Source: Mytilus trossulus | Taxonomy: Eukaryota | Length of the DNA: 64,000 nt | Direction: 5' to 3' | Assembly (NCBI RefSeq): GCF_036588685.1 | Contig: NC_086382.1 | Span: forward strand, 73,718,001 to 73,782,000 | In this document: positions 12,901 to 59,580 of the stretch, one piece after another | Layout of the letters: each line of letters opens with the position of its first letter | How positions within the stretch are numbered: the stretch's first letter is position 1 | The notes under the pieces: generated by a model | What the model saw: the letters and a program-made list of their open reading frames with translations, nothing else | The model's database searches: none | Told to the model about the DNA's origin: nothing | Translations under genes and position numbers: made by a program

Positions 12901-13566
12901 TCAATTAAAAAGAATTATAAGATGCACTTTGTAAATACAACTGTTTCTCAAACCACGCCTCCTCTTTTGGGGAGTTTTAGAATATTCATAGAAAATTAAT
13001 TTTGGTTACATACTGGTTCCGATTTATGATATCTGTGAACCATCTCATAGAGACCTAACTTGGGAATGTTACCAGTAAATATACACGAGCAATTTGTTTC
13101 TATTGAAATCCATGGTAACCTTTTATTCGAGGTAGGGTTAGTTAAGAAAAGAAGAGAGGTTCAGAGCATAAACGTTGAAAATATGCCGCACCGCCCTATA
13201 TTTTGAGTTGTAGTGCATATGAACTTTCAATTCTAGGATAAGATTTTATTCAAAACTTCATAGTAAAAGTGGTAAAGTTTAAGCCTTAAAGGGAAAATTG
13301 CATCGTCAATATTTACAGAAATGCAACCTTTAGCATAACATCTGACGAAGCTGAACTTCTAAATTTTATAAATCGTACTTTCCGGAAATTTTATCAGGTG
13401 TCCAACACAATGCAAAGTTACCAATTGGACAACAAACATATCATTTCATTGATACACACCCTATTAATAAGTATGATTACGTATGTTGTAACACTATAAG
13501 AAATCAGGGTAGTAGAATTAAGAATTACTGTAAAGTCTGCTTTTGATTGTTGAAATTACACCTTAA

Positions 13567-14458
13567 CAAACTGTGCCCCTCTACTTGCCGACTTGTGTCT
13601 TTATTATTATGAGGCTGATCTCATGCAGGAACTTCTTAGGAAGAAAGATAAGAACCAATATCCTTTAACTCTACTTTCCGCTATATAGATGACGTTCTTT
13701 CACTAAACAATTCAAAATTTGGTGATTATGTGGACGGCATATATTCCATCGAATTGGAGATAAAGGATACTACAGATACAGTTAAGTCGGCTTCATATCT
13801 TCACTTACATCTAGAAATTAACAATGAGGGTCGGTTGAAAACAAAACTTTACGACAAAAGAGATGATTTCAGCTTTCCAATTGTGAACTTTCCATTTCTA
13901 AGTAGCAACATTCCAGCAGCACCTGCATACGGAGTATTTATCTCCCAATTGATGCGATATCCTCATGCTTGCATTTCCTATCATGATTTTCTTGATAAAG
14001 GGTTACTGCTCACAAATCAGCTATTAAACCAAGAGTTCCAAACGGTGAAGTTGAAATCATCCCTTCGTAAATTTTACGGACGACATCACAAGTTGGTTGA
14101 CCGTTATGGAATAACCGTTTCACAAATGATATCGTATATGTTCCTTACGTCGTAACTACAATCCCCTTCCCTTTCATGAATGTGACCTACCGAATTAGAC
14201 TATTTACCGGTTTTGTAATCACATAAGCAACACGACGGGTGCCACATGTAGAGCAGAATCTGCTTACCCTTCCGGAGCACCCGAGATCACCCCTAGTTTT
14301 TGGTGGGGTCCGTGTTGTTTATTCTTTAGTTTTCTATGTTGTGTCATGTGTACTATTGTTTTTTGTCTTTTTTCTTTTTCATTTTTAGCCTTGGCGTTGT
14401 CAGATTGATTTATATTTATGAGTTTGATTGTCCCTTTGGTATCTTTCGTCTCTCTTTT
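13567..14458 (+). mobile_element. 5'-truncated Penelope-like (probably Naiad-type) retroelement, family 1
   Basis: NCAPLLADL, FRYIDDVLSLNN and KLYDKRDDFSFPIVNFPFLSSNIP; 3' UTR ending gtc(c/t)ctctttt shared with the copies at 23328, 43405 and 59178. Confidence 0.8.
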
Positions 14459-15361
14459 GATAACATTGTTTTGTGAATTCTTTTGCACAAACAACAGTTT
14501 AACTTTGTTTACTAGTTAATTATTTGTAGGTAAGAATTAGATATTGTTTGTTATCAACTAGAAATAATAAGTTTTAATCTATTGATATCAAATACCATTC
14601 AGATTAAAAATAAAAGTTGTTATCAAGTTATATCGATATCTCATGAGATGTTTAAACTATTTCTCTAATGACCAGCCGTTGAACTGATCTTTTGCACAAT
14701 CAACATAATTGTGCGATTCAGAATGTAAATAGAATTTGAAAACAAGTGATAAGTATAATTTTGTAAAATATTGAAGACATCGCAAATACGCGTTGCAATA
14801 AGAATGTGGCCTTCTTTAGTCTTGTATTATTCTAATTTTAGTTTCTTGTGTGCAATTTGGAAATTAGTGTGGCGTTCATTATCACTTAACTAATATATAT
14901 TTGTTAAGGGGTCAGCTGAAGGTCGCCTACGGGTGCGGGAATTTCTCGCTACATTGAAGACCTGTTGGTGACCTTATGCTGTTGTTTTTTTCTATGGTTG
15001 TTATCTCTTTGACACATTTCCTATTTAGATTCTCAATTTAACCTTTAACAATCATCAATGACTTAATGAATAGATCATGCAAATATTGTAATATAGAGTG
15101 GTCAGTGTTTTGTTATATATCTGCCTGTAAGAAATAACCAACAAGTCACAACTATAAGAGAATATAATAAATGTATCACAAAGAGTGAAGGATGTTGTTA
15201 ATTGTTCGTTCAAAAATCCAAGAAATATAACACAAGCCTTTGATGGTTGACTTGAGTCAATTTATATTTGTACATATACAAGTGGTTTTTATATGTATCT
15301 TAAACATACTAATATATCTCACCATTTAGTTTGGGTTATTCTTATTGTTGAAGGCCGTACG

Positions 15362-16010
15362 ATAGTAGAGGGGCATTGAGTTTTCTGGTCTGTGCGTCCG
15401 ATCGTCCGTTCGTTCGTCCGTCCGGCTGTTCCGCTTCAGGTTAAAGTTTTTAAAGCACTTCGGTGTTGACATAATTATAATTACATGATCATTTTTTATA
15501 AATTTTCTTTTACAAAACTTGGAAAAACTAAAGATGATCTTATTCCAGGAATAGATTACCTAAGCCTTATTTGGTACAATATTTTGGAATTTTGGTTCCT
15601 CAATGCTCTTCAACTTTGTACTTGTTTGGCTTTATAACTTTTTTTATTAGAGCGTCACTGATGAGTCTTATGAAGACGAAACGCGCGTCCGGCGTATTAA
15701 ATTATAATCCTGGTACAATTGATAACTATTTTGTCAACTTGAAGGTGGTTTTTGATGAAGATGAATACGAATCAACTCAAAACCTAGGACGCAATCATGT
15801 TCCTTTTGATATGATCTATCTAATTTTATAGCAAAATTAGACTATTGACCCCAATTTCACGATCCAGTGCACATAGAAAATGAAAGTGCGAGCTTCAGGT
15901 TAAAGTTTTTGTTCAAGGTAGTTTTTGGTGGAGTTGAAGTCCAATTTCCTTGAAGCTTCGTTCATATGTTCCCTATGGTATGATCTGTCTTATTTGAATG
16001 CCAAATTAGA
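15362..16010 (+). mobile_element. Helentron/HINE (pearl-like) non-autonomous element interrupted by a retrozyme fragment (~15453-15731)
   Basis: ggggcattgag...tgcgtccg start, (GTCC/TTCG)n microsatellite, repeated gcttcaggttaaagttttt core at 15433 and 15892. Confidence 0.5.
15652..15695 (+). ncRNA. Type I hammerhead ribozyme motif ~415 nt upstream of the TLR-A coding exon
   Basis: gcgtca-CTGATGA-GTCTT-atg-AAGAC-GAAA-CGCGCG-TC-cggcgt; the stem I pair next to the core is an A.C mismatch. Confidence 0.7.
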
Positions 16011-16110
16011 TTGGTTTGTTTAAAGGATTTTGATTAACTGTGGTTTGTGTAGATCTTTTATTCGACTAGTATTTACATTTAGAATTATATTCATATGTAT
16101 TTTCTTGCAG

Positions 16111-19020
16111 CTACAAGTTATACAGAAGAAACGAAATGCAGCGTTCAAAATGATAATATTGATTGCAGCCATTTAGATTTGACAACAATACCCAGGCATC
16201 TTCCAGTAAACGCGACCAGTCTGAACTTAATTTGGAACAGTATCAAAATAGTCAAAAGCTTTTCTTTTAAGTCTTTGCGATACATTACATACCTTGATTT
16301 GGGAAGAAATGTTATAGAGTTAATCGAGATAAATGCTTTCCATGGCCTACATCGTCTACGAACTCTACATCTTCACGACAATGTTATCAATGTTTTTCCT
16401 GACGGCATGTTCGAAAGACTAAATGGTTTACAAGTTTTGTCAATTGATGGCAATAAACTAAAATATTTCCAAGATGATAAAATAACAAAAGTATCAAAGA
16501 TCGTGTCACTGACCACACTTTCGTTTGACGTTTATCCAGATTTCAAATTTCCCAGGCAATGGGGTACGTTAAGTAAGTTGACAGATTTGAGGATATTTGC
16601 TATGTCAGCAAAAGTAAAATTCAACAAGGCAATGTTCGTTCATGTTAATATGATGCAAACTACTGCTCTCTCCATAAACGTTGTGCCGTTCATTTCGGAA
16701 GATTTTTTCGAACATTTTCCTAAATTAGAGTCAATAACACTATCGATAGGTAGTGATTTACCGAACAATCCAATAGACCAAGTATTCAAATCTTTTGGAA
16801 TTTTTAGGGGAAAGAACATTTCAAACCTTGAAATAAGGTCTGGCAGATTTGATAATTGGTTTATTTTAAATTACAAGAGAATGAGGTATTTATGGTCAAT
16901 TTGTTTGAAACGACTGACATTGAATAATCTTTACATTAAAGATATACCTATATATGCGATGCAAGTATTTTGTATCAAAAGCACATGTCTCGAGTACCTG
17001 GAATTTTCTGACAATATCATGTTTGACCGAGGAGCTGCTGTAGTTGCAGTTATGAATAATTTAAAAAATTTGAAAGTTTTGAAAATTACAAGAAATTGGC
17101 GTAATTCGAGAAGAAAACGCTCACAACCATCAAAATTATATAATTTTGTACTTCCAAAAACTCTTGAAGAATTGTATATAGAACATAACATGGATGGTGA
17201 TATGGCCGATGTTGAAGTTGTAAACGGTTTCAATCTACGTGTGCTAAGCTTGAAGGACAATGAAATGTGGTCATGCATTGGAACTTTTACAGGAATTATA
17301 AATGTGGAGTATACCTCAATCTCTTGGAATTTTTAGGGGAAAGAACATTTCAAACCTTGAAATAAGGTCTGGCAGATTTGATAATGGGTTTATTTTAAAT
17401 TACAAGAGAATGAGGTATTTATGGTCAATTTGTTTGAAACGACTGACATTGAATAATCTCTACATTAAAGACATACTTATGTATGCGATGCAAGTATTTT
17501 CTATCAAAAGTACATGTCTCGAGTACTTGGAAATTTCTGAAAATACCCTCTTCGACAAAGGAAGTTCCGCTGTATTTTTTGAAGTGAAGAACTTAGAAAA
17601 TTTGAAAGTTTTAAAAATTATTAGAAATTGGCGTACTTCGAGATGTAAACGCTCGCAACCATCAAACTTATATAGTTTTGTGTTTCCAAAAACTCTTGAA
17701 GAATTGCACATAGAACATAACATGGCTGGTGATATGGCCAATGCCAAATTTAAACACAATGAAAATCTTCGTGTGTTGAGCTTAAAAGACAATGAAATGT
17801 GGTCATGCATTGGTAGTTTTACAGGAATTATAAATGTAGAGTATTTTGATATGTCTGGATGGAGATGCGAAAAGCTTTCTATTAACTTGCTTTATGGTTT
17901 CCCAAATTTGAAAACATTGAAAGCAAGTGGGTCACATTTAGGAAAAGGATTTGTAAACCTTACGGGAGCTGGGTCTTTCTTGAGTAAGAATCTGAAATTG
18001 CAAGATATTAATCTTTCGTCTAATAGGATAAGCAGTATACCAGATGGATTATTTTTGCGCCCGTTTGAGAAGTTATCATCAGTTAACATGTCGTATAACA
18101 ATCTCACAATATTTCCTAAGTTTCATGCAAGTATCAAAACATTGAAAATAATTGATTTAACCTTTAACAGTATTACACACTTCAATAATGAAAATATTAA
18201 ACGAATAAAAAAGCTTGGAGAAGTTAATTTACTGTTGAGAGGTAATCCCTTTCAATGTTCCTGTAAAACAATACAGTTTTTAAAATGGCTTAGTGAGACA
18301 AACCGAGTGCAAGATATATTAGATCTGACCTGTGAAACTGAAAAGGCTTCCAGAAGGTTTATGTCTGATGTTATTTCTAATCTAAAGACATTTGAGATGT
18401 CATGCCAAACTAAATTCTGGTTGCCGTTTGCTGTGTCTTTAACCTCCATTATCATATTTTCTATGATATTAACCGTCGTATTCTTTCGATATAAATATGC
18501 TGTTGAGTACTTATTATTGCGATTAAAAATGAAAATGAGAAACTACAAGGAACTGACACAGGACTATTATTATGATGCTTTTATATCATATAGTCATACA
18601 GATTTGGAGTGGATTAAACAGTTCCATGACAAGATAAGCAATATGGGCTTCGAATTATGTCTGGACGCTAAGAATTTTATTGGCGGTAAACCTATAGCAG
18701 AAAACGTGCTCAATGCCATCGATTCCAGTAGAAAGGTTATATTCGTTGTGACTCACAATTTCTTAAAGAGTGAATGGGGCTCTTATGAAATGGAAATGAC
18801 CCGTATGCATGCTTTTCAGAAGGGGAGAGAAGATATGGTGATTGTTGTCGTAAAAGATAATATTAAGATAACCGATATGCCGGATGTGATGAAGAATATG
18901 TGGTTTAAAATAACATGTATTCAATGGCCAGATGATGACAACCTGCCATACAATACGGAGGAAATATTTTATGAAAAGATGAAAATGTCTCTGAAAATGA
19001 AGGAAGAAACTACTATATAA
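16111..19020 (+). pseudogene. TLR-A: single-cysteine-cluster Toll-like receptor, chimeric with an out-of-frame internal ~530-bp repeat (ORFs 16095-17336 and 17302-19020)
   Basis: Phase-1 acceptor ttttcttgcag|16111; LRRNT, LRRs, LRRCT NPFQCSC, TM FWLPFAVSLTSIIIFSMILTVVFF and TIR YDAFISYS; frame breaks at ~17315; signal-peptide exon not identified. Confidence 0.85.
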
Positions 19021-20289
19021 TATTCCAGAAGTTCAGCATAAAAAGTTTGCCATCATTTCAGAATAATTATCAAATTTGGGTAAAAAAACGTTGGTTAGTA
19101 GACATTTTATGTTTTTATAGATGTGCTATGAACCCTGACACAAGAAAGAGAAGAAGTAGAACGTATCTCCAGTCTATGATTCGTATATAAATGTGGTCAT
19201 ATTCTTAACTTTGTTGCTCTTGTATTCTCGTAAGTGTATCACATACTTGTTTTCATTTTGATTGTGTTATAAATCATTTTTTAAATTTTTTGCACGGTCA
19301 AACTTTTGGTTATGATTTTTCTTGTGATTGATATAACAGAAACACGTGTTGTACTCATAGAATATATTTGTTTTATTGTTGTTTGTTAGAAATATATATC
19401 AGAATCAGATATGTATCTAATAGGTTATTATGGATAAGAACATTATCAGTAGGAACAACATAATATTTACGCAATACTTGTTTTAGATTGATTGTGTTTA
19501 ACGTATTGTTTAGCTTATTGCAAATTTAGTGTCAGTCAGTTTCTGTTTGTGAAGGAAACCAAAGTACACAGAGAGAACAATCGAGTTTGTATTCTGTTTT
19601 AAGTGTGTTAACTTCTTATGCAAATTAGCTAACCCATCCGCGACGCATATAAGATAAACATTCCTATCGATTATCGAAACCTGGTGTGCTGTTGTTAATT
19701 CATTGAATGTGTCCGCTGTAATTCTGCAGTACAGTGTAATAAGTACTGTTATGTTTTTTCAGTTATGTACTTCTCTGTGCTAAGTTCTGTTGTTTGTACC
19801 GCATTCCTGTTACGTAGTGTGTCAATTAACCGATATGTTAAACATTGATATATACGCAAGAGTTAACAAAACAACCAGGTGCAACCAACTTTGTATCTGT
19901 AAAATGTAAAACATGGCAGTTGTTATCTAAAGTCTGTTTCTACGTATTTTAGCGCTTATTTTGTAGCTCAATGGTTTAGTTGTTCCGTTTTTGTTCCCCC
20001 GCTTTTATTTAACGTGTTTCCCTCGGTTTTAGCTTTTGACCCGAAAATGTGTTTGCGTGTAAGACTATGTTATGTGATTTCACATGTTATATCATAAAAA
20101 ATAAAACTATCTAAAACAATTTTCATTTGGAAATAATGCATCAAGTTACATCTAAATACTTATTTTTAAATCTAAAACAAAAATGCTATTGTTGGCTGTT
20201 TTTGCAATTTAGCATTTTAATGCAAGAAGTTTGAATATATTCAGTTAATTTGTTTACACCATTCAGAAGTATTTAACCAAGGAAAAATG

Positions 20290-22825: not shown

Positions 22826-25800
22826 ATGAACATTCTTAAGATTATACTTCTTTGGATCTTAACAGCCTTAAAAGAAGGTAAATTAATTCATTTATTTTAA
22901 TTATTACTATATTTCCAGTGGATATTCAGTTGACCATTGATGACTGTTTAAGGTTACGACCATGAACATTTGATGTATACGATGTCTTGAATAGTTTACA
23001 AAACACTTACACTTACACTTTTATCTTCATGCTTGATGATCAAAACAACACAATGTGTCTGTGTTTGGTATTGTCTTTGCATTTTGTACGGTTAAATATA
23101 TTTGTATTATTTAAGCGGTTTTTATATGTGACTTACACACAGGAGCTAGAAGTTTTTGCTTTACGATATATACTAGTATAGATTAAAAATTTACAAATAT
23201 GTTATGTTCTACATTGGTCAATATTATAGGTTTTGAATTCTTAAAGGGACACTAGCTACTAGAAATGTAAGAGAAAAATTAAGAATGATTGTATTGGTTC
23301 AATCATTTATAAAATACTTCAGATATGAACTTCTTTGGAAGAATGATAAGAAGTTAGCAATATCCTCTTACTCTACATTCCGCTATATAGATGATGTTCT
23401 TTCACTAAATAATTTAAAGATAAAGGATACTACAGATACAGTTATATTGGCCTCATATATTGACTTACATCTAGAAATTGACAATGAGAGTCTGTTGAAA
23501 ATAAAACTTTACGACAAAAGAGATGATTTCAGCTTTCCAATTGTGAACATTCCAGCAGCACTTGCAAACGGGATATATATCTCCCAATTTATACAATATT
23601 CCCGTGCTTGCATTTCCTATCATGATCAGGATCTGCCTACCCTTCCGGAGCACATGAGATCACCCCTAGTTTTGATGGGGTTCGTGTTGCTTATTCTTTA
23701 GTTTTATATGTTGTGTCATGTGTACTATTGTTTTTCTGTTTTTTTTTTTAATTTAAGCCATGGCGTTTTCAGTTTATTTTAGATTTATGAGTTTGACTGT
23801 CCTTTTGGTATCTTTCTCGTCCCTCTTTTGTACCATTTTGTTTCTTTTTTCAAATTAAGCAAAACATTCAGGATGATTTATTTACTTCTGACCGAATAAT
23901 TCGACCTCATTGAATCCATATTCATGTGAACTAAAATTTATAACCCCTTAGCTAAAGATTGTTAACTCAATCATTAGTCATGCTAGGTTATTTATAGGGA
24001 AGGATGTCAACATTGAAATGGGAAACAAAGGTAAGTCATTTTATTGACTGAATCGATCCACAAAAGATCATTCTTATACAGGTAATAGCGATGATTACGA
24101 CATATTTGTAATCTATAATAAGAAATTAAACAGACCAACGCCGTCGCGATTAAATAACACACAAAGCGAAGCTACGCATTAGCGAGCCTTTGCCCTACAA
24201 ATTGTTTATTTAAAGGATTTTATAACTTGAATTATCGGATTATGAATCAAATATGAGATTTTGAATCAAATCAATGAGCAAGTATTTGACAGGTAATGCC
24301 GCGTTAACCAATACGAAAAGAGTTGTTACAAATTTTCTTTTTGGTTTATCTGAAGGATTTTGATTTACTGTTATTAGAATAAGTTTTGTAAAGATCTTTT
24401 ATTTGACTAGTATTTACATAAAAAAATATATCAATACTTATATTCTTTCAGCTAAAGGTAATAGCAATGTAACGAAATGCAGCGTTCAAAACACCATTGT
24501 TGATTGTTGCAATTTAGCTTTCAACACAATACCCAGGCACCTACCAGTAAACGCGACGAATCTGGACTTAAGTAGAAACAGCATCAAAATAGTCAAAGGC
24601 TTTACCTTTCAGTCTTTGCGTTACCTCACCGACCTTAGTTTGGAAAGAAATGGTATACAGTTAATCGAGAAAAATGCTTTCCATGGGTTACATCGTCTAC
24701 AGAGTCTACATCTCAGATCCAATTTTATAAAATTATTTCCCGACGACCTGTTTGACAGACTGAATGGTTTGCAAGAGTTGTTAATTGACGGCAATAAACT
24801 ACAATACTTACAAGATAATGAGATAACAAAAATATTAAACATGTTAAAAATCATGTCATTGAGGAAATTTTCGTTTGACATATATCCAAATTTCAAATTT
24901 CCCAGTCAATGTGGTACGTTAGGTAAGTTGACAGATTTGCGGATTTACGCTAGGTCCAATTCAAAAAGGCAATGTTCGCTCATGTTAACGGGATGTCAAT
25001 AATGTCTATCTCCATAGTTATTGTGCCGTGTATATCGGAAGATTTTTTCGAACATTTTCCTAAATTAGAACCATTAAAACTTTCGATAGGTAGTGATTTA
25101 CCTAAAAATCCAATAGACCAAGTATTCAAATCTTTTGGAGTTTTCCATGGACGAAACATGATAAATATTGAAATAAGGATCGGCAGATTTGATAATGGGT
25201 TTAATTTAAATAACCAGAGAGTGAAGTATTTATGGTCAATTTGTTTGAAACGACTAACTTTGAGTGACTTATATATTAAAGACATATCTATATATGCGCT
25301 GCAAGTATTTTCTCTTCGAAGTACATGTCTTGAGTACCTGGAAATTTCCGAAAATTCTATCATGGACGAAGGAGGTACTTTCATTACACTTATTCAGAAC
25401 TTTAAAAATTTGAAAGTTTTTAAATATATAAGTAATTGGCGTCGTTCGAGAGGTAAACGCTCGCCTCCATTAAGATTATATATATTTATATTCGTATTGC
25501 CAAAAACTCTTCAAGAGCTTTATATAGAAGATAACATTGCGACTAAATTGACCAATGTTGAAATTATAAACGGCCATAATCTTCGTGTGTTCAGCTTGAG
25601 GGACAATGTCATCAGGTCATGTAAAGGTGGCTTTACAGGAACTATACATGTAGAGTATTTTGATATGTCTAGGTGGACATGCAAAAAGCTGTCATTTAAA
25701 TTATTATATGGTTTTCCTAATTTGAAAACGTTGAAAGCAATTGGGTCACTTCTAGGCCCTGGATTTGTCAACACTGCTGGAGCTGGGTCTTTCTTGAGTA

Positions 25801-26879
25801 AGAATCTGAAATTGCAAGATATTAATCTTTCGTCTAATAAGATAAACAGTATACCAGATGGACTTTTTGTGCGGCGGTTTGAACAGTTATTATCAGTTAA
25901 CATGTCGTATAACAACCTAACAATATTTCCTAAATTTCATGCAAGCATCAAAACATTAAAGATAATTGATTTGACATTTAACAGTATAACACATCTCAAT
26001 AACAAAGACATTAAACAAATTGAAAAGCTCGGAGAAGTTGACATATTCCTGAAAGGAAATCCCTTTCAATGTTCCTGTAAGACATTACAGTTTTTAAAGT
26101 TTTTAAGTCAATCCAAACGAGTACCGGATTTCTTAGATCTGACCTGTGTAACTGAAAAGGCTTCCAGAAGGTTTATGTCTGAAGTTATTTCCAACCTTAA
26201 GACATTTGAGATTTCCTGCAAAACGAAATTCTGGTTGCCGTTTGCTGTGTCTATAACTTCCGTTATCGTACTTTCCATAACAATAACTGTCGTATTCTTT
26301 CGATATAAATATGTTGTTGAGTACTTTGTATTGCGATTTAAAATGAAAATGAGAAATTACAAAGAATTGAGGAAGCAGTATGCGTATGATGCTTTTATAT
26401 CATACAGTCATGCAGATTCAGAATGGGTTAAAGATTTCTATGATATGGTAAATAGTATGGGCCTCGAATTATGTCTGGACGCCAAGGACTTTATTGCTGG
26501 TAACAGTATAGCAGAAAATGTGGTCAATGCAATCGATTCCAGCAGAAAGGTTATATTTATTATAACTCATAATTTTCTAAGGAGTACTTGGGGGTCATAT
26601 GAAATGGAAATGACCCGTATGCATGCTTTTCAGAAAGGAAGAGAAGACATGGTGATTGTTGTTGTAAAGGATGAGATAAAGATAACAGATATGCCGGAAA
26701 TATTAAAGATAATGTGGTCTAAAATTACATGTATCCAATGGCCAAACGATGACAATCTGCCATACAATACGGAGGAAATATTCTATGAAAAGATTAAAAT
26801 GTCTCTGAAAAAGAAGGAAGAAAGTACTTTACTGTATCTAGAAATTCAGTTGTATAGAACATTTTTCGTCATTTCCTAA
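22826..26879 (+). CDS. TLR-B: Toll-like receptor with a 10-bp frameshift deletion at 24956/24957 (exon 1 22826-22877, exon 2 from 24452); pseudogene, soluble 200-aa LRR product, or splice-rescued 794-aa receptor
   Basis: Signal exon MNILKIILLWILTALKE-G|gtaaat (phase 1); acceptor tctttcag|24452; ggctaaagta missing relative to TLR-D 41271-41280; full LRRCT-TM-TIR in ORF 24972-26879; 1-nt deletion near the C-terminus. Confidence 0.85.
23245..24196. mobile_element. TTAA-flanked non-autonomous DNA transposon (Kolobok-like) in the TLR-B intron
   Basis: ttaa|agggacactagc ... tgccct; homologous copy at the same intron position in TLR-D (39940-40502). Confidence 0.5.
23328..23830 (+). mobile_element. 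Internally deleted Penelope-like family 1 fragment nested in the intronic DNA transposon
   Basis: FRYIDDVLSLNN, KLYDKRDDF and the shared 3' tail; absent from the homologous TLR-D intron. Confidence 0.8.
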
Positions 26880-27159
26880 CAATACTAATATTAGAATTGC
26901 GAAACATTTCTTTGGTGAGTAGCAATTCTGTGTATATAGCTGTGATAAAAACAATTATACAAGAGAGACTTTAAAGTGGTCAAACGAAGGCTTAAACTTG
27001 TTTAAAGATGTAGTTGTATTCCAAATACTACTTTGCAATTTATCACACGGTTTATATGTTGTCTTACAGTTTACTTGTATACTCTTTAGCGTCTTTCAAT
27101 GTTGTATTTATATTAATTGTGCTATTAATCGTTTCTGTTTTTTGCACGGTCAATTGTTG

Positions 27160-30300: not shown

Positions 30301-30795
30301 TATGAACAAGGAGATGTGGTAGGATTGACAATGAGACAACTATCTACAAAACATCAAAGTCACATATAGATTGTATGAAATCAATTAAAATATATAATGG
30401 AACAAGTTGGCAAGATGACGAGTACAGTGTGTTCCTATGATTCCAAATTTGTTGAAATACACGTCCTGCATACGAACACATCTTGTTTCCAGTAAAGAAA
30501 TCATATATATTCGTATACATCTTACAGAGAATGTTCTGTTCAAATCAACAAACAAACGAATCAAACCGTGTAAGGCAAAGTAGAATGACATCCACACCCA
30601 ATATTGTATGTTTAACTTAGAAAAGCTCAAAGTAAATCGATGATTAATTATATACTTTAAAGATGATGACAGATACAAATGTCTCAACTTTAAACCCTCA
30701 ACTCTAGATTGTTTATGATAAACAGTTATCTTACATGTTTTATTCGTCAAATATAAGGCATGTACGTTAAGATCAATATTTATTTACTCTTGCAG

Positions 30796-31508
30796 TTCAA
30801 AGTAAAGGAAATAAGACGGAATGTATCGAGGAAAATGCACATGTTAATTGCAGATTTGTGAATTCCTGCAAAACAAAGTTTTGGTTACCGTTTGCCGTGT
30901 CTATAACCTCAATTATCATGTTTGCCATATTATTAACCGTCGTATTCGTTCGATATAGATATGCTGTTGAGTACTTTTTATTGAAATTCAAAATGAAAAT
31001 AAGAAATTATAAAGAATTAAACCATGAATATACTTATGATGCTTTTATATCATATAGTCATGCAGATACGCAATGGATTAAACAGTTCCATGACAATGTT
31101 ACCGGTATGGGTTTCGATTTATGTCTAGATACCAAGGACTTTACCTGTGGTCCTGGTATTGCAGAAAATATTATAAATGCAATCGAATCCAGCAGAAAGG
31201 TGATATTTATTATAACTCACAATTTCTTAAAGAGTACTTGGGGATCGTATGAAATGGAAATGACCCGCATGCATGCTTTTCAGAAGGGAAGAGAAGACAT
31301 GGTAATTGTTGTTGTAAAGGATGAGATAAAGGTATCCGATATGCCGGAAGTATTAAAGTGTATGTGGTTTAAAATTACATGTATTCAATGGCCGAACGAT
31401 GACAACCTGCCTTACAATACGAAAGAAATATTTTATGAAAAGATAAAAATGTCTCTCCAAAGGAGGGAGGATACTACTTTACTGTATTCTAGAAATTCAG
31501 CTGTATAG
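30796..31508 (+). CDS. TLR-C: LRR-less Toll-like receptor (LRRNT cap fused in frame to end of LRRCT, TM, intact TIR)
   Basis: Phase-1 acceptor ttactcttgcag|30796; reads QSKGNKTECIEENAHVNC-R-FVNSCKTKFWLPFAVS...TIR...YSRNSAV*; 566 codons missing relative to TLR-D; exon 1 uncertain. Confidence 0.8.
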
Positions 31509-31747
31509 AGCCTTTGCCATCATTTCAGAAATATAAACTAATGATAAGTCCTACTTTTATAAGTTGGAGTCAAAAGTACGATTTCCTGCAAAGCTTATTG
31601 ACTACATTAGTTTTGGATTAACAGTGATTAAAATATTCCAATGAGACTAAAAAAGGATTTTTGTTGTTGTGATAAATGATAATTTTACCTGACGTAGACG
31701 TGTGAAAAATTAATTTCGAAATTTTACTTCCAAAAATTACTTGTGTA

Positions 31748-38531: not shown

Positions 38532-38581
38532 GCGTCACTGATGAGTCTTACATGTATGTAGACGAAACGCGCGTCTAGCGT
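38532..38581 (+). ncRNA. Type I hammerhead ribozyme motif with expanded loop II, ~0.9 kb upstream of the TLR-D ATG
   Basis: gcgtca-CTGATGA-GTCT-tacatgtatgt-AGAC-GAAA-CGCGCG-TC-tagcgt. Confidence 0.7.
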
Positions 38582-39491: not shown

Positions 39492-42400
39492 ATGCACATT
39501 ATTAAAATCATATTCCTTTGGATCGTAACAGCCTTACAAGAATGTAAGTTATTTCATTTGTTTTTATTTATTACTATATTTCCAGTGGCTATTCAGTAGG
39601 ACATTGATGACTGTTTAAGGTCAAGACAATACACATTTCCACTGATATATGCGATGTATTCAAAAGTTCACATAACACTCACACTTAAACTCTTCTCATC
39701 ATGCTTGGTGATCAAAATAACACAATTTGTCTATGATTGTTGATTATGCAATGTTTGGTGATTGTCTTCGCATTTTCAAGGTTAAATATATTTGTATTAA
39801 TGTGGTTTTTATATGTGACTAACACACAGGAGCTAGCAGTTATTATTTTTACGATGTATACTCGTATAGATTAAATGGTTACCAGATTGAATGCTCTATG
39901 TTCTACATTGATCCATATCAGGTTTTTTTTTATTTTTAAAGGGGCACTAGCTATGAGATATGTTAAACATTCCAATTACGAGTTTTGTTTTGTTCTATTA
40001 TCAATAAAAGACTTATAGTGAAATAATACTTTGCCTTAGCAGCCAGTATGGTTTATTTTTGTCAAATTAAGCTAAAACATTGATGATGATTTATTTACTT
40101 GCGAGAAAATAATTTGAGCTTATTGAATTCGTATTCATGTCAACTTAAATGTTACCCCTTAGCTAGAGATGGTTAATTAATGCATTGGTCGTGTTAGGTT
40201 ATTTATAGGGAAAGAATGTCAACATTGAAAAGTGAAACAAAGGTAAATCATATGATTGACTGATTTGATCCACAAAAAATCTTTGTTATACAGGTAATAA
40301 CGATGATTAAGACATATTTTTAATCTATAATATGAAATGAAACATCCCTAGAAAAATCCAATGGACGAGTTTGCTTCTATGTATATCTACATTGATGTTC
40401 ATATCGCTTATATGAATCGGAGGTCAATTCTGTAGTTTATTAGAAGCTGTATCATTTGAATTACACACGAAACGAAGCTACGCATTATCGAGGCAATGCC
40501 CTTTAACTTGTTTGTTGTAGACATTTTATAACTTGAATGAATGTATTACCGGGTTAAAAATTCAAATATTATTATTTGAGTCAAATCGGTTAACAAATAT
40601 TTGAAAGTAAATGCCGCTTAAATCAATACGAAAGAGGTGTTTCAAATTTTCTTTTTGGTTTATCTGAAGGATTTTGATAAACTTTTATTTGAATAAGGTT
40701 TGTATAGATCTTTGATTCAACTAGTCTTGACATCAAAAATTATATTAATACTTATATTTTTGCAGCTAAAGGTTATAGTAATGAAACGAAATGCAGCGTT
40801 CAAAGCACCAATGTTAATTGCTGCAATTTAGCCTTGACCACAATACCAAAGCACTTACCAGTAAACGCGACGAATCTGGACTTAAGTAGAAACAGCATCA
40901 AAATAGTCAAAGGCTTTACCTTTCAGTCTTTGCGATATCTCACCGACCTTAATTTATTTAGAAATGGGATACAGGTAATCGAGAAAAATGCTTTCCATGG
41001 ATTACATCGTCTACGGAGTCTACATCTTAGTTCCAATTCTATAGAATTATTTCCCGACGGCATGTTTGACAGACTGAATGGTTTACAAGAGTTGTCAATT
41101 GAATGCAATAAACTACAATACTTACAAGATAATGACATAACAAAAATATTAAACATGTTAAAGATCGTGTCACTGAGGAAATTTTCATTTGACATATATC
41201 CAGATTTCAAATTTCCCAGTCAATTAGGGCCGTTAAGTAAGTTGACAGATTTGGGGATTTTCGCTAGGTCGGCTAAAGTACAATTCAATAAGGCAATGTT
41301 TTCTCATGTTAATTTACTGCAAATACTGTCTCTATCCATAGATGTTGTACCGTTCATATCGGATGATTTTTTCGAACATTTTCCTAAATTAGATTCAATA
41401 ACACTTTCGATAGGTATTGATTTACCTAAAAATCCGATAGACCAAGTATTCAAATCTTTTGGAGTTTTCCGAGGAAGAAACCTGACGAGCATTAATATAA
41501 ATACTGGGAGATTTGATAATGGGTTTATTTTAAATTACAAGAGAATGAGGTATTTATGGTCAATTTGTTTGAAACGACTGACATTGGATAATCTCTACAT
41601 TAAAGACATACTCATTTATGCGATGCAAGTTTTTTCTATCAAAAGCACATGTCTTGAGTACCTGGAAATTTCTGAAAATACCATCTTCGATCGAGGAGGT
41701 TCTTTACTTTCAGTTATGAAAAACTTAAAAAATTTGAAAGTATTGAAACTTAAAAGAAATTCGCGTAGTTCGAGAAGTAAACGCTCACAACAACCAAGCT
41801 TATTTAGTTTCGTGCTTCCAAAATCTCTTGAAGAATTGTATATAGAGCATAACATGGCGGGTGATATGACCGATGTTGAATTTATAAACGGTATCAATCT
41901 TCGTGTGCTAAGCCTGAAGGACAATGAAATGTGGTCATGCATTGGAACTTTTACAGGAATTATAAATGTTGAATATTTTGACATGTCTGGATGGAGATGC
42001 GAAAAGCTGTCAATAAATTTGCTATATGGTTTTCCAAATTTAAAGACATTGAAAGCCAGTGGGTCACATCTAGGAAAAGGATTTGTAAACCTTACTGGAG
42101 GTGGGTCTTTTTTTAGTAAGAATCTGAGATTGCAAGATATTAATCTTTCGTTTAATAGAATAAACAGTATACCAGAAGGACTACTTCTGCGCCGGTTTGA
42201 GCAATTATCATCAGTAAACATGTCATATAACAATCTTACAATATTTCCTAAATTTCATGCAAGCATCAAAACATTGAAAATAATTGATTTGACCTTTAAC
42301 AGTATTACACACTTCAATAACGAAGACATTGAACACATTGAAAAGCTTGGAGAAGTTGATATACTCTTGAGAGGTAATCCCTTTCAATGTTCCTGTAAAA

Positions 42401-43176
42401 CATTACAGTTTTTAAAATGGCTAAGTGAGACAAATCGAGTACAGGATATCTTAGATCTGACATGTGAAACTGAAAAGGCTTCCAAAAGGTTTATGTCTGA
42501 AGTTATTTCTAATCTAAAGACATTTGAGATGTCATGCCAAACTAAATTCTGGTTGCCGTTTGCCGTGTCTATAACCTCCATTATCATACTTGCTATGATA
42601 TTAACCGTCGTATTCTTTCGATATAAATATGCTGTTGAGTACTTTTTACTGAGATTCAAACTGAAAATGAAAAATTACAATGAATTGCAACAGGAATTTA
42701 TTAATGATGCCTTTATATCATATAGTCACACAGATTTGTTATGGGTAAAACAGTTTTATGACAGGGTAAACAGTATGGGCTTCGAATTATGTCTGGACGC
42801 CAAGGACTTTATTGCTGGTGAAAGTATAGCAGTAAATGTAATAAATGCAATCGATTCCAGCAGAAAGGTTATATTTATTATAACTCACGATTTCTTAAAG
42901 AGTAGTTGGGGGTCATATGAAATGGAAATGACCCGTATGCATGCTTTCCAGAAAGGAAGAGAAGATATGGTAATTGTTGTTGTGAAGGATAATATTAAGA
43001 TAGCAGATATGCCGGATGTGATGAAGAATATGTGGTTTAAAATTACATGTATCAAATGGCCGAACGATGACAACTTGCCATACAATACGGAGGAAATATT
43101 TTATGAAAAGATAAAAATGTCTCTCCAAAGGAGGGAGGATACTACTTTACTGTATTCTAGGAATTCAGTTGTATAG
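39492..43176 (+). CDS. TLR-D: intact single-cysteine-cluster Toll-like receptor, 820 aa (exons 39492-39543 and 40766-43176)
   Basis: Signal exon MHIIKIIFLWIVTALQE-T|gtaagt (phase 1); acceptor tttttgcag|40766 in frame with ORF 40834-43176; LRRNT, LRRs, LRRCT, TM and TIR uninterrupted. Confidence 0.95.
39940..40502. mobile_element. TTAA-flanked non-autonomous DNA transposon (Kolobok-like) in the TLR-D intron
   Basis: TTAA|aggggcactagc ... gcaatgccct|TTAA with imperfect TIRs. Confidence 0.55.
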
Positions 43177-43404
43177 AGCCTTTGTCATCATTTCATAAAT
43201 ATAGAATATTAATAAGTATTATGTCTATAAGTTGGAATCAAGAGTACGCTTTTCCTCAAGGCTTTTGTTATGATAAAGCAAAGAAAAATTCAAGCAATGC
43301 TACATTTCGCTATAAGTATTTTCCTTTAATAAAAATAAGGTTCAGAGGGCATGTTCAGAGTATTGATTGAAACAATTGTTACGTTTAATGTAAGATGCTT
43401 TTGA

Positions 43405-44370
43405 TTTCTTGATTGACAACATATTTGTTACGTTCGGAGGACGTGTTTTCAACAGACTGTCGGCATCCCAATGGGAACAAACTTGCCCCTCTACTTGCTG
43501 ACTTGTTTCTTTATTATTATGAGACTGATTTCATGCAGGAACTTCTTAGGAAGAAAGATAAGAAGTTTGCAATATCCTTTAACTCTACTTTCCGCTATAT
43601 AGATGACGTTCTTTCACTAAACAATTCAAAATTTGGTGACTATGTGGATCGCATCTATCCCATCGAATTGGAGATAAAGGATACTACAGATACAGTTAAG
43701 TCGGCTACATATCTTGACTTACATCTAGAAATTGACAATGAGGGTCGGTTGAAGACAAAACTTTACGACAAAAGAGATGATTTCAGCTTTCCAATTGTGA
43801 ACTTTCAATTTCTAAGTAGCAACATTCCAGCAGCACCTGCATACGGGGTATATATCTCCCAATTGATACGATATTACCGTGCTTGCATTTCCTATCATGA
43901 TTTTCTTGATAGAGGGTTACTGCTCACAATGAAGCTATTAAACCAAGAGTTCCAAATGGTGAAGTTGAAATCACCCCTTCGTAAATTTTACGGACGCCAT
44001 CACGAGTTGGTTGACCGTTATGGAATAACCGTTTCACAAATGATATCGGATATGTTCCTAACGTCGTATTTGCAATCCCCTTCCCTTCCATGAATTTGAC
44101 CTACCGAATAAGACTATTTACCGGATTTGTAATCACATAAGCAACACGACGGGTGCCGCATGTGGAGCAGGATCTGCTTACCCTTCCGGAGCACCTGAGA
44201 TCACCCCTAGTTTTTGGTGGGGTTCGTGTTGTTTATTCTTTAGTTTTCTATGTTGTGTCATGTGTACTTTTGTTTTTCTGTTTGTTTTTTTCATTTTTAG
44301 CCATGGCGTTGTCAGTTTGTTTTAGATTTATGAGTTTGACTGTCCCTTTGGTATCTTTCGTCCCTCTTTT
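43405..44370 (+). mobile_element. 5'-truncated Penelope-like family 1 element ~230 nt after the TLR-D stop
   Basis: GIPMGTN/LAPLLADLFL (frameshifted), FRYIDDVLSLNN, YDKRDDF and HHELVDRYG; conserved 3' UTR. Confidence 0.85.
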
Positions 44371-45814
44371 TAACAAGTAGCAACATATGTATTTTTTGCA
44401 AAGAAGAACCAGAGGCGGTCGCAAGTCTTTGTCATGCCCTAAATCACAGGATTTTCAAAATGACAAATATTGAACTGCCTTTGAATATTAAAATTATTCT
44501 GTTTGAAAAACTTCGAAAAAAAGAAATTGCATTTTGATAAAATAATATTGTCTGCTTAAAAATACCATATCCACCGAACAAACTTACAAGAAGTGAGGAA
44601 TACATTTGATTTAAAATCTTCTCTATAGAGTCATATAGCAAACACTGGAGCTCCTGTAATCCTATTATAAAATAAATAAAAAACACACCGGGTTTTGTTT
44701 ACCATTTTTTATTTAAACTGCACAAATAGATATTCCAAAAAACGAATTAGATTTCATTGTTCTAAGCTAATTATTTATGTTCAACCTAATGTTGCACTTT
44801 TTTAAATTCAATTGTTGTTTTTTATTTAAACTTTCCTTAGTGTGAATATGCCATTCAGTATGCTTTTGTTCATAGATTTTGTGCTACATGTAGTCTAATT
44901 GTAACAAAAAAAATTTATTAAAAAACTCAAAAATATCTTTAAGATAATCTGTTTATGCTTCTATATTTACTTTTAAACTCTTAATTTTTTTATTCTGTAT
45001 ATTTATCTGGGTTTTTCCTAATGTCCAAAATAAAACAATATTTAAGTTAAGTGGTAGCTTATTTAGGACTTTTTTATTCATACTTCTATTAAATTATTTC
45101 TAAATGTCAAATATTTTTGGACAAATCAATATTAAATAATATATTTTAGTTTTGCATTGATTTTGTATTGACATTGATTTGTGTCTTAAACTCTGTGTAT
45201 GATTATGAATGGGGCTACTGTAATTTTTAATTTTTGTTTTGTACAATGACATCATAAACACTTTATTTCAGATCATATTTCATATAAAAACAATTAGAAG
45301 ATATGGTATGACCGCAAATGAGGCAACTCTCCACAAGATTTTAACTAGAATATGCATACTTCTTTCTCACAACCACAATACCCGCACTGTAAACTGTAAA
45401 GTACTAGGGTATACACTAAAGACACGAGGTTACATTCTACTGCTTTAACATATCACGAAAAACAAACACTGCCTTAAATATAGATATAGTTTGATTGCAA
45501 ATGAGACAACACTCACCAAGAGAAAAGATGACACATAATGTCTATTAAGATATCAAAACCACTTTTCCTATGATGTGATATTTGTGTTTTGTCGTTAAAA
45601 CATTGTACATTTTTGTTAACGTATTTTAGATTTTTAAAATATTGATAATAATTGGACAATAAAGGCATAACAACCGGGTGCGGGAATTTCTCGCTGCATT
45701 GAAGACCTGTTATTGACCTTCTGTTTTTGTCTGCTTTCTGGTCGGATTGTTGTCTCTTTGATACATTCCACATTTCCATTCACATTTTTTATTCAAATCT
45801 CATTACATTTAATA

Positions 45815-46873
45815 TCTATAAAATTGAGAATGGAAATGGGCAATGTGTCAAAGAGACAACAACCCGACCGTAGAAAAAAACTACAGCAGAAGGTCACCAA
45901 CAGGTCTTCAATGTAGCGAGAAATTCCCGCACCCGGAGCCGTCCTTCAGCTGGCCCCTAAACAAATATATACTACTTCAGTGATAATGAACGCCATACTA
46001 ATTTCCAAATTGTACACAAGAAACTGAAGTTTAAATAATACAAGACTAACAAACACCAGAGGCTCCTGACTTGGCACAGGCGCAAAAATAAAGCGGGGTT
46101 AAACATGTTTGTGAGATCTCAACCCTCCCCTTATACCTCTAGCCAATGTAGAAAAGTAAACGCATAACAATACGCACATTAAAATTCAGTTCAAGAGAAG
46201 TCAGAGTCTGATGTCAGAAGATGTAACCAAAGAAAATAAACAAAATGACAATAATACATAAATAACAACAGACTACTAGCAGTTTACTGACATGCCAGCT
46301 CCAGACTTCAATAAAACTGACTGAAAGATTACGATTTTATCATATGAACATCAGGCACAACCCTTCCCGTTAGGGATTTAGTATCATACCATCATAACAT
46401 ATATGAGAAGAACATAACCCGTGTCAAGCCAACAACTGGTTTTTGAATAAATGTGTTTGGTTCCGACGCAAAGACCCTATAAATGAATCAATATTAACGC
46501 CAAAATATGCAATATTTAATGACCTGACAACAGTATTGTAGCTATATCCCGTCTTAATAAGTCTATTCAAAGGTTTTGTTAGTTTCTGAGGTGAATACTG
46601 ACATCTTTGTGCTTTATAAAGAATATTTCCATAAAAAAATGGATGTGAAATACCTGAACGTATAAGAAGTATGCATGTTGAGCTATATTTACGAATGATG
46701 TCCTTATACCGATGATAAAATTTAGTAAATACATTGACTAGTTTGTGATATCGAAAACCCTGGTGTAATAATTTTTCAGTAAAACGTAAATTTCTCTCAT
46801 TAAAATCTAAAACATTGTAACATATACGAGCGAATCGTACAAGTTGAGATATATAAACATCAAGACTTTTCAT
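45815..46873 (-). mobile_element. 5'-truncated Penelope-like (Naiad-type) element, family 2: RT C-terminus plus 3' UTR
   Basis: ORF 46424-46873 VYISQLVRFARIC...KLLHQGFRYHKL is homologous to the family 1 thumb; long repeat-like 3' tail. Confidence 0.75.
46340..46406 (-). promoter_or_regulatory. Eukaryotic type II SECIS element in the retroelement 3' UTR
   Basis: Minus strand: UCAUAU-auguu-AUGAU-GGUAUGAUACU-AAA-UCCC-uaac-GGGA-AGGGUUGUGCC-UGAU-guuc-AUAUGA, giving helix I, UGAN/NGAN quartet, 11-bp helix II, unpaired AAA and a ministem. Confidence 0.75.
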
Positions 46874-48185
46874 AAAAGAATTAACGGCTGAAACTACACC
46901 CAGGTATATAATTTGGTATCAATATTATGTATTTCAACTACATTGAATGTCCATCGCTATCTATTAAATCATTAATCATTATTTTTTTCAGACTCCTTTA
47001 GCCGTCTATTTTTTGCCCAGAGGGGTTTATTACCAATCCTTAATTTGTTACTTATTCCACATGTAAGATGTGATAAAACCATACTTGTTCCCAACGGCTA
47101 CTTAAGTTTGGATTTCTATTCAAGAATTTGAAAAGAAACTCTAGCTAAAAGAATTTGTTTTAACATGTGGAAACTTTACAGATCAGTTCATTAATTTTTA
47201 TAAATATACGTATATGTATAAAAGAAAACCTGCTACGTCCTTGGGTGAATCCATTTCATAGTTTCTAATGAAGTTAAATCCCGATAAGCGCTTTAGATGG
47301 ATAAAATGTAGTAACATTAGTAATTGTTGTTCTCTTTATTTGAGTCAAGGAAGTAGAACTATCAAAACTTGTCAATTTATTTTAACGGCTCCTATTACAA
47401 TTAAGTCATACAATATCAATTTAATGCAATTTTAACCTAATGTGTATGCGGAAGATCTAAAAGAAGAGGGACGAAAGATACCAAAAGGAACGTAAAATAA
47501 ACCACTAAAAGCAAAGCAAAACATCAAAACGGAAAGTCCCTTATCAAACAAAGAGAAAATCCATTGAAAAGTGCAACAATAAACAGCAAGTGGGATATAC
47601 ATTTAACAGATGAGAAGGTCAAAATAAGACTTCACAATCGTAATAAAATATAAACCACATACTAGTTTGATACAAAATACCAAAATAAACTAACAAAGCT
47701 AGCATGTGGCAACATGAGGCCTTGTGAACGAAAAGGGTGACGGCGGTCACTGTTAATCTGTATTCCTTTTTTTTAAATTGCCAAGAACTTTTGTACTTTT
47801 CAAATAAATGTACTTCCGTTAGTATAATTTCCTTTTTATTTCACATGCCTGTTGTCAATTGAAACTACTCACCAGGTAAAAAAAGGCAACTAAAAAATAG
47901 TAAAATACGCTTGACATGTCAGAAAGAAGTACAGACGCCACCATACCTTTGCATTTAATACGCGTTAACACATAATTATGTACAGTAAATAAAAATTGTT
48001 CCTGGCCTTGTGTTAATATTGTGAGTTAATGTGGTAATTTCTTCATTGCAGCAACATCTTATATTTTTGTTATGTTGTGTACTTTTTTTCCAGATGTATG
48101 TGTATTATATCCCTTCATTGTGTTCTTGGGCTACGGTCATTTTGTGTGTTTTTCTTTTTTGCTTATGTGCTTTGTCTTGATCGCC

Positions 48186-48608: not shown

Positions 48609-49039
48609 AAATAGTTATCAAAGGTACCAGGATTATAATTTAGTATGCCAGACGCGCGTTTCGTCTACATAAGACTCATCAGTGACGCTCATATCGAATA
48701 AGTTATAAACCAAACAAATACAAAGTTGAAGAGCATTGAGGATCCAAAATTCCAAAAAGTTGTGCCAAATACGGCTAAGGTAATCTATGCCTGGGATAAT
48801 AAAATCCTTAGTTTTTCGAAAAATTCAAAGTTTTGTAAACAGGAAATTTATAAAAATGACCACATAATTGATATTCATGTCAACACCGAAGTGCTGACTA
48901 CTGGGCTGGTGATACCCTCGGGGACGAAACGTCCACCAGCAGAGGCATCGACCCAGTGGTGTAAATAGTTATCAAAGGTACCAGGATTATAATTTAGTAC
49001 GCCAGACGCGCGTTTCGTCTACATAAGACTCATCAGTGA
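48609..49039 (-). mobile_element. Non-LTR retrozyme: 354-nt unit bounded by two type I hammerhead ribozymes
   Basis: Repeat period 354 (48609/48963); hammerhead cores at 48645-48688 and 48999-49039; cUUCGg hairpin gtcagcac-ttcg-gtgttgac inside the unit. Confidence 0.85.
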
Positions 49040-50480: not shown

Positions 50481-51113
50481 TACCAGCCCAGTAGTCAAGA
50501 TGTCGGTGTTGACATGAATATCAATAATGTGGTTATTTTTATAAATATCATGTGTACAAAACTTTATTTTTTTTCCAAAATTTAAGGATTTTTCTCATCC
50601 ATGGCATAGATTATACCATAGCCGTATTTGGCACATTTTTTGGAATTTTGGATCCTCAGCTTTATAAATATTTTGATATGAGCGTCAGTGATAGGTCGTA
50701 TGTAGACGAAACGCGCGTCTGACGTAATAAATTATATTCCTGGTACCTTTGATAACTATTTACACCACTGGGTCGACGGCACTGCTGGTGGACGTTTCGT
50801 CCCCGAGTGTATCATCAGCCCAGTAGTCAACACTTCGGTGTTGACATGAATATCAATAATGTGGTAATTTTTGTAAATTTCCTGTGTACAAAACCTAGAT
50901 TTTTTCGACAAACTAAGGATTTTCTTATCCCAGGCAGATTACTTTAGCCGAATTTGGCACAACTTTTAGAAATTTTGATCCCTCAATGCTCTTCAACTTT
51001 GTACTTGTTTGGCTTTATTAATATTTTGATATGAGCATCACTGATGAGTCTTTTGTAGACGAAACGCACGTCTGGCGTACTAAATAATGATCTTGGTACC
51101 TTTGATAACTATT
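50481..51113 (+). mobile_element. Second retrozyme tandem array (~1.8 units), inverted relative to 48609-49039
   Basis: Period ~353; hammerhead at 51035-51078 has an intact core, the copy at ~50682 is mutated (GTGATAG). Confidence 0.85.
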
Positions 51114-57587: not shown

Positions 57588-59177
57588 GGTTAGGGAAACC
57601 AGTCATTTCTGTAAGGCATAGAAAACTTATGAAGACTGACAGAAGGTAAAACAGACATAAGTATATTCAGTTATGCTTATATCAGAAAGCTTACGGATAC
57701 AACCATCAATTTAGGCATACTATGCATTGCTTGCTGAAAACACAAACACCGACCGTGTCGTCATAAGCTAACGTCACGGTACCAAAATTGCACCGAGTAC
57801 CAAAATTGCACCTATTTAGCAAAAATAGCAGCGGAAATCATACAAGATTTTATAAAGGCTAAACAATTTGTGTTTGATACCATGCACGTCTTTTAAATAA
57901 GGTAATTATTATATATTTAGCTATACACAAAAGGTTCACAGAAGTTATCAACATATGAAGTGTTCACTGAAAAAGCAAAATGGGAACGTCGCCATGCGAT
58001 GTCATCATCAAAACGTCATTCTTTCAAAAATTAGCAAATTATACAATATTTTACAGCATTCTTTTTTTTTTAAATGAAGAGTAATCATGGACATATATTC
58101 AATTGTTCAAAATATTTGAAATTAATGATACATCTACAAATTAAACACAAAATGGAAACTGTTGCCTGGAGCCTAAAAAACGTTATGATAATACAGTTAT
58201 GATAAAAGAGAAATTACACATTCTCTATATCTTCCCATTCAGAAAACCAATGCAAATAAACAATAACGTTCAATCAAATCTTTTTAATTTTATACTATAT
58301 AGTTTCATCTACAAAAGACAGAAATTGAAAAAAGTAGATGTACACTTACATTAACTTGTACGACAAATCAAAGATGCCTCAATTAAATCCGTAGAAAATA
58401 TTGCAGCTCATGTGTTGTATTTTTAACTTGTATTTTTCATAAAATTATCACTCCGTGTTCTCACATCATTAATGTCATAAATTCCTATCTGAATACGATA
58501 TATAGACCAAAGTAAACTACAAGTAGCGTGAAGTACGCCCTAAATTACTAAATCCTCATAACTTTATTGTCAATACACAAACATTTATAAAGTTTCAACT
58601 GCGAACTTAAAATCTTGTTTTGAGGTAAGTATCCGGCTTATAATGAAGACCAATGTAATGGACTTACAAATACCGTTTGATATAGTTTGTCAATAAACCC
58701 TCAATTGTATATAAAAGGCGTTTGAACCCATCTATAGTTTATCATTAAATATTTCCATATCATATTTACATGTGTATTTATAATTTAAAATTATTTACAA
58801 AAGGGCATTTAAATTTCTTTAAATGGATCCGACTTTTCACATCAATGTTTTTAAAGTGATGTTTGTTGTAAAATTAGGAATTTAACAAAAACCTTTGATT
58901 AGATGCAGTAAACCTGTTTCATAGCATATTTATGTTAAGTAAAACATGTAGCGGGAATCTGCCAGAATTAACTTTCCTTTAATTGTTGTGACTAAATGTT
59001 TGTATAAAATTCTTATATTTAAAATAAAATATCGACAAGTACGTACACGATTATATACAACATCAACTACTGCCATTTGTTTTGCTTATGTATAATCGTC
59101 AAAAAAAATATTTTGTTCATCTTGTTGGACTAATTAGTCGGCTAGAATACTTTATCCTGCAATTAGCCAACTATTGT

Positions 59178-59580
59178 AATCATCCCTTCGTAAATTTTAC
59201 GGACGCCATCACGAGTTGGTTGACCGTTATGGAATAACCGTTTCACAAATGATATCGGATATGTTCATAACGTCGTAACTACAATCCCCTTCCCTTTCAT
59301 GAATGTGACCTACCGAATTAGACTATTTACCGGATTTGTAATCACATAAGCAACACGACGGGTGCCACATGTGGAGCAGGATCTGCTCACCCTTCCGGAG
59401 CACCTGAGATCACCCCTAGTTTTTGGTGGGGTTCGTGATGTTTATTCTTTAGTTTTCTATGTTGTGTCATGTGTACTATTGTTATTCTGTTTGTCTTTTT
59501 CATTTTTAGCCATTGCGTTGTCAGTTTGTTTTAGATTTTTGAGTTTGACTATCCCTTTGGTATCTTTCGTCCCTCTTTTT
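59178..59580 (+). mobile_element. Short 5'-truncated Penelope-like family 1 copy in the region 5' of the kinase ATG
   Basis: SSLRKFYGRHHELVDRYG plus a 3' UTR nearly identical to 43970-44370. Confidence 0.85.

Follow-up and report, generated by a model that had tools for sequence, protein, structure and literature searches.

A hairpin on the minus strand of a 64,000-nucleotide stretch of Mytilus trossulus DNA (hereafter the window) is very probably the selenocysteine-insertion element (SECIS) of a selenoprotein-encoding family of Naiad retrotransposons of Mytilus. A sequence-only reading of the window had proposed a type II SECIS next to the reverse transcriptase (RT) frame of a truncated Penelope-like element, and a full-length family member with in-frame UGA at Cys positions; this interpretation is supported by the analysis reported here. 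New, as far as we found, are a mussel Naiad family with a SECIS, a much wider clade of such elements, and UGA sites that differ between families.

Table 1. Features of the window discussed in the text.
Feature	Position	Strand	Basis or remark
SECIS element, 3' UTR of Naiad copy	46340..46406	-	Rfam SECIS_1 31 bits; pairing kept across two families
5'-truncated Naiad Penelope-like copy, last 1042 nt of ~4.0 kb unit	45818..46859	-	94.5-94.8% identity to L002 and L001
Last 133 codons of endonuclease-RT frame, decaying	46460..46858	-	89% identity to P0001
Site of the family's TAA stop, CAA in window copy	46457..46459	-	alignment to L001
More diverged 3'-end fragment, same Naiad family, without SECIS	45674..45789	+	85% to L001; tail to tail with main copy
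Short 3'-end fragment, same Naiad family, too short for SECIS	14807..15050	+	sequence alignment
Host Toll-like receptor frame	40708..43176	+	LRR and TIR domains; ends in TAG; strand opposite to SECIS

The hairpin has the full canonical anatomy of a SECIS. Read on the minus strand, helix I (46403-46398 with 46346-46341) leads to the 5' core AUGA (46395-46392) and the 3' core UGAU (46353-46350); nine of the ten pairs of helix II are formed (46390-46381 with 46363-46354), and beyond the unpaired AAA (46379-46377) lies an apical minihelix of 3-4 bp (46375-46373 with 46368-46366). The unpaired AA falls within the usual range of 11-13 nt past the core. The AUGA, AAA and GA core, the 10-pair helix II and the apical minihelix are shared with eukaryotic SECIS elements (RF00031); unlike typical members, the element lies on a mobile element and has no Sec codon upstream in the window copy. 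The label "type II" is right by geometry, given the minihelix, but a real difference from the type I of clam elements was rejected, as the published clam SECIS show a small apical helix by eye in the accessible material.

The Rfam model SECIS_1 covers 46341-46405 across the whole model at 31 bits (E-value 0.0012 in 2 kb, 0.038 in the 64 kb window), the only SECIS match in a scan of the whole window. The gathering score of 35 bits is not reached by the window copy, nor by two related contigs, L001 and L002 (32.3 bits each), so that a strict Rfam scan overlooks the window SECIS. The folding energy does not stand out (z -1.69; of 200 shuffles, 18 fold equally well), and a canonical SECIS descriptor, composed after the element had been seen, matched once in the window and once across 30 simulated 64 kb sequences. 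The AUGA...GA non-Watson-Crick core is invariant in all five aligned sequences, and in the three that belong to the family of the window it is identical, as the earlier reading required; between the window SECIS and that of L001 there are two differences in 65 nt and no broken pair. At the level of sequence, the hairpin is confirmed as a genuine SECIS.

The contigs L001 and L002 are public and were found with a SECIS-based pattern; both are about 95% identical to the window copy. In L002 (1-890 and 2024-3837) a Naiad fragment adjoins genes of bacterial appearance, with frames that by eye resemble a thioredoxin and a peptidase, and this contig is probably a metagenome chimera. L001 holds a unit of about 4017 nt and its contig ends overlap by 77 nt, for which reason it is probably an assembler-collapsed path of many copies and not one genomic copy. 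Its single frame of 1002 codons has no TAA, no TAG and no frameshift, but four in-frame TGA; the GIY-YIG endonuclease comes first and the RT last, followed by TAA and, 51 nt on, by the SECIS. The full-length element with in-frame UGA at Cys positions that had been predicted from the truncated copy is therefore found in L001. The UGA codons are the second Cys of a CxxxxCxxC finger (codon 55), the Cys before GIY-YIG (codon 86), the first Cys of CCHH (codon 97) and the residue eight positions after DKA (codon 522; DKA+8), which correspond to 68, 99, 110 and 535 in a second numbering, used below.

Among 146 proteins from a profile-free HMMER search, the relatives that cover these four columns carry Cys in 57 of 58, 73 of 73, 76 of 76 and 132 of 132 cases (98-100%). 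Nine of the 29 Cys-or-UGA columns of L001 are equally conserved and all four UGAs are among these nine, for which simple counting gives a chance of 126 in 23751. The 25 other Cys of L001 use TGT or TGC; with the host sequence being nuclear Mytilus DNA, a variant genetic code was rejected.

L001 carries, in order, the motifs by which Naiads are defined in the accessible text of PMC8557442: a CX2-5CxxC finger, CCHH, a KR-rich block, CxC, GxKY and DKA. The position of the GIY-YIG domain N-terminal to the RT in one frame was read from the translation; Pfam gave no match for the L001 protein, whereas the homologs P0133 and P0142 do carry PF01541 and PF00078. Consistent with a Naiad, the 4017 nt unit lies within 3.4-4.4 kb, 5' truncation is strong, and no hammerhead was matched in L001 in a search at E 0.5. 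The spacing of RT motifs 3 and 4, where the insertion in fingers is expected, resembles that of another Naiad locus (L011) by eye. L001 also has what marks the selenoprotein Naiads of clams: a UGA ahead of GIY-YIG, one at the first Cys of CCHH and one at DKA+8, together with a 3' SECIS.

A pattern scan returned ten further loci (L003-L012), all filed as bacterial genome contigs; these animal retrotransposons are likely to be host contamination. Protein-guided scans of viral contig and genome contig collections yielded no match, and neither did the DNA pattern in viral contigs. L003-L009 overlap one another and come from two contigs, on which one Naiad family, 45% identical to L001, is arrayed in tandem; it has five TGA, at 99, 110, ~298, 398 (first Cys of CxC) and 535, and Cys at 68. 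A SECIS follows every frame at 42-43 bits, above the Rfam cut-off. The third of these UGAs falls outside the conserved Cys columns, and P0095 has W there; a further UGA shortly ahead of the SECIS (L004, 2500-5640, minus strand) is probably the stop, as reported for Naiad_Mmer. The remaining loci have Cys throughout: L011 is an intact full-length element with TGT or TGC at all sites that resembles published Mytilus Naiads, and the fragment L010 and the broken L012 show Cys at every covered site. None of these three, of which only L011 is intact and full-length, gave a SECIS match, while UGA and SECIS co-occur in both UGA families. Covariation, proposed earlier as a check of the hairpin, is seen between the SECIS of these two families, which align nearly gap-free: of 76 cells, 73 are paired, compared with 42-54% in a control with slid partners, and both sides have changed in 11 of the 19 pairs. 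Resting on two families, this is in effect one comparison.

These data bear on the possibility that the UGAs are decoded as Cys, Trp or Arg, or that they act as true stops and divide the product (with, for example, the RT made from a downstream start), the hairpin being a remnant or serving some other purpose. Methionines are present downstream of the fourth UGA, one of which is the start of P0001, and recoding of four UGAs should on general grounds be inefficient. Nevertheless, the joint presence of UGA and SECIS in two of two families and the absence of the SECIS from three of three all-Cys loci argue against it, as does the use of TGT or TGC by the remaining Cys of L001; as stops, the three UGAs within the endonuclease would leave that domain in fragments. 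We consider this explanation very unlikely and favor recoding as selenocysteine.

Relatives of L001 in protein collections suggest that the UGA-type elements are widespread. The UGA sites of L001 are seen again in independent assemblies. Of the 15 listed members of a 54-member cluster of middle pieces, 11 stop precisely ahead of the fourth UGA and the other 4 further upstream, and no listed protein extends over it. In a 9-member cluster, W and never C stands at the site in each of the seven members covering any of the first three sites, which we take as TGA that a gene caller translated with TGA=W, although TGG would give the same residue. The L001 segment from the third UGA to the fourth, used as a query, retrieved 71 clusters. 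In 38 of them (39-98% identity) the protein stops precisely ahead of the DKA+8 Cys, and in 8 precisely ahead of the CxC Cys; of the others, 20 continue across DKA+8, with C in 19 and W in 1, and the remaining 5 fit none of these groups. The stop-split relatives are known as proteins, with a presumed UGA. An all-Cys full-length protein above 40% identity was not found in the profile-free HMMER search, in which clusters at 50% can hide such proteins.

A tree was computed from 46 stop-split proteins, L001, L004, P0095, L011 and the 24 closest all-Cys proteins covering the sites (74 rows). In it, 49 UGA-type rows lie on one side of a branch with SH-aLRT 100 by a quick method, a clustering that is favored by the gathering of rows by likeness to L001. 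The rows with a stop at CxC are scattered inside this side of the tree, and the mussel family belongs to a subclade (16 rows) separate from a clam-like one (30 rows). Five relatives at 59-80% identity carry Cys at the fourth UGA site; C at 535 is seen in P0006, P0008, P0010 and P0136, and in P0125 (59% identity) the arrangement of L001 is inverted, with W at 398 and C at 535. The UGA sites thus differ between families and between near relatives. Separately, a Mytilus edulis sulfotransferase gene model (P0143) contains 55 in-frame residues of the endonuclease of the window's family at 84% identity; this piece is an inserted fragment, exonised or mis-annotated.

The copy in the window retains the 3' part of the element only. 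Its 5' end falls inside the RT, and in accordance with the earlier reading no Sec codon is visible: UGA at Cys positions is found in L001, not in this copy. Compared to L001, the 133-codon remnant has 16 non-synonymous and 4 synonymous codon changes, which together with the change of TAA to CAA indicates that the copy is decaying. The position of this TAA is where P0001 ends, as do most of the members listed for its cluster. The SECIS does lie 3' of the RT frame on the same strand, as that reading stated, but not directly after it: the stop proper to the family is lost here, and the SECIS starts 51 nt past its position. An open frame on the minus strand (46424-46918) begins with about 20 codons of flanking DNA, continues into the Naiad sequence, passes the lost TAA and ends at a UGA (46426-46424). 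This UGA was rejected as a Sec codon, as it lies in the 3' UTR of the family about 30 nt from the core and is in frame only because the stop was lost. A second in-frame TAA of L001 and L002, five codons after the stop, is also missing (46444-46442, minus strand). Five fragments of the family are present in the window, and only the main copy reaches the SECIS. Matches to miRNA families at 45666-45943 were far under the cut-off and were rejected; they are produced by two inverted 3' ends of the element that form a long hairpin. The SECIS in the window is most likely an inert passenger of a dead copy.

Two RNA runs and two contig sets were aligned to L001. RNA depth in the SECIS bin was 13.7x and 8.1x that of the endonuclease bin, and contig depth, which is no copy number, was 12x and 51x. 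The SECIS bin was covered from both strands, as expected when copies are embedded in other transcripts. Over L001 1782-3562, in the 5' half, one RNA run was biased 3.7 to 1, toward sense if the library is of the usual stranded type, and the other run was unbiased. Of 693 variant rows, the 40 considered include none at a UGA or within the SECIS, which says little about conservation of the UGAs or the core.

The host locus is a cluster of Toll-like receptor (TLR) genes, with all TLR frames on the plus strand. Residues 400-822 of the frame in Table 1 are 91% identical to a Mytilus edulis TLR, and at least four tandem paralogs (16011-19149, 24150-26968, 30771-31596 and 40456-43264) share 78-87% DNA identity, some being partial or split into two frames. 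The window also contains truncated copies of a second, different Penelope-like family (43413-44375 on the plus strand, 13565-14465, 59174-59580 and 23327-23829), for which the whole-window scan gave no SECIS match in the 3' region. Six type I hammerhead ribozyme matches lie in a dispersed repeat (48645-48688 on the minus strand, 15652-15695, 38532-38581, 6076-6119, 49002-49039 and 51035-51078); one of the six reaches the Rfam cut-off, and retrozymes or other Penelope-like elements are possible sources.

The sequence-only reading had further suggested that 5'-truncated copies scatter SECIS elements that host 3' UTRs could capture. The scattering fits the depth gradient; capture is unlikely for the window copy, which is antisense to the TLR genes. 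Capture by a host transcript, with recoding of a host UGA, would be in keeping with the intact fold of the window copy and with the plentiful SECIS-bearing RNA of the two runs (reads on L001), and the idea is already in print (PMC8557442, in its accessible text). Yet the nearest TLR frame on the opposite strand ends in TAG 3.2 kb from the SECIS, and 11 upstream minus-strand frames of the 47 listed, when translated across UGA, had no Pfam match over the cut-off. In addition, the divergence of the SECIS from L001 (2/65) is like that of the rest of the UTR (20/454), a comparison of low power. We regard a captured SECIS in the window as exceedingly improbable. That the hairpin arose by chance beside a pseudogene whose stops reflect decay deserves next to no credence: the Rfam score below threshold and the weak folding z-score speak for it, but the same fold occurs with different letters in the second family, the four stops of L001 are all TGA, sit at Cys columns that hardly vary and are seen again in dozens of clusters, and 1002 codons without TAA, TAG or frameshift refute it as far as sequence can.

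Selenoprotein Naiads with 3-4 UGAs and a SECIS were reported from two clams and two spiders (Craig et al., 2021; PMC8557442), and the donation of SECIS elements to host genes by truncated copies was already proposed there. Like L001, Naiad_Mmer (Mercenaria mercenaria) and Naiad_Scon (Sinonovacula constricta) have an N-terminal GIY-YIG and a C-terminal RT, and they share three of its UGA sites, namely the Cys ahead of GIY-YIG, the first Cys of CCHH and DKA+8. The UGA at the second finger Cys is extra in L001, with Cys in both clam elements. In both the Mytilus family and the clams the SECIS lies just after the stop, but its letters differ and the distance is 51 nt compared to 1-21 nt (PMC8557442). 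P0110, a row inside the UGA clade, agrees with the printed Naiad_Mmer at 85 of 100 residues by eye, which places the clam elements in the same UGA clade and makes the mussel family one of the clam type and no new origin.

The spider elements Naiad_Sdum and Naiad_Smim (Stegodyphus) have, as L001, several UGAs at conserved Cys and a 3' SECIS, and Naiad_Sdum shares the UGA at the second finger Cys; unlike in L001, no UGA is reported there at the first CCHH Cys, the IFD is reduced, and an independent origin is reported (PMC8557442). Naiad_Mgal and Naiad_Mcor come from the same host genus and the same Penelope-like clade as the L001 family, but they are listed without UGA or SECIS and have Cys at the endonuclease sites (PMC8557442); they resemble L011 and not L001. 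The 3'-end motifs of the L001 family were absent from the accessible part of the published Naiad consensus file, in which line breaks can hide a match. Later literature on mussel selenoprotein Naiads or on SECIS capture by hosts was not found in a search that left repeat databases and subscription journals outside, and selenium is not mentioned in the accessible parts of a 2026 preprint and of PMC10294476. The comparison with the published Naiad sequences, as far as these were accessible, was made by eye.

For the mussel family we propose that the SECIS on the mRNA of the element would recode all four UGAs as selenocysteine. In eukaryotic recoding, SBP2 binds the SECIS core and eEFSec delivers the Sec-tRNA to the UGA. 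The whole protein would be made only if the selenocysteine machinery of the host succeeds four times and, as all four UGAs are upstream of the RT, transposition would be tied to the selenium supply. Because reverse transcription begins at the 3' end and in most cases breaks off early, as Naiad biology and the depth gradient suggest, many copies are expected to keep the SECIS and lose the UGAs; the window copy would be one of these.

A broader picture can be drawn, of one large invertebrate clade of selenocysteine Naiads, with 46 or more clusters at 90% identity. Thanks to an inherited SECIS, Cys and Sec would swap among several metal-binding and conserved sites of these elements, transposition would depend on selenium, and intact SECIS elements would be seeded in mussel genomes, some to be captured by host 3' UTRs and to give rise to new selenoproteins. 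Taken as a whole this is unlikely, but the breadth of the clade and the turnover of UGA sites have support. Selenoprotein-encoding transposons were previously described from four families, to which a very abundant mussel family is now added, one that gene callers break up at the UGAs, and the clade of selenoprotein Naiads is far wider than published. As mussel genomes would then hold many truncated copies with an intact SECIS, genome assemblies and long-read transcriptomes that already exist make the question of how genes gain a SECIS testable.
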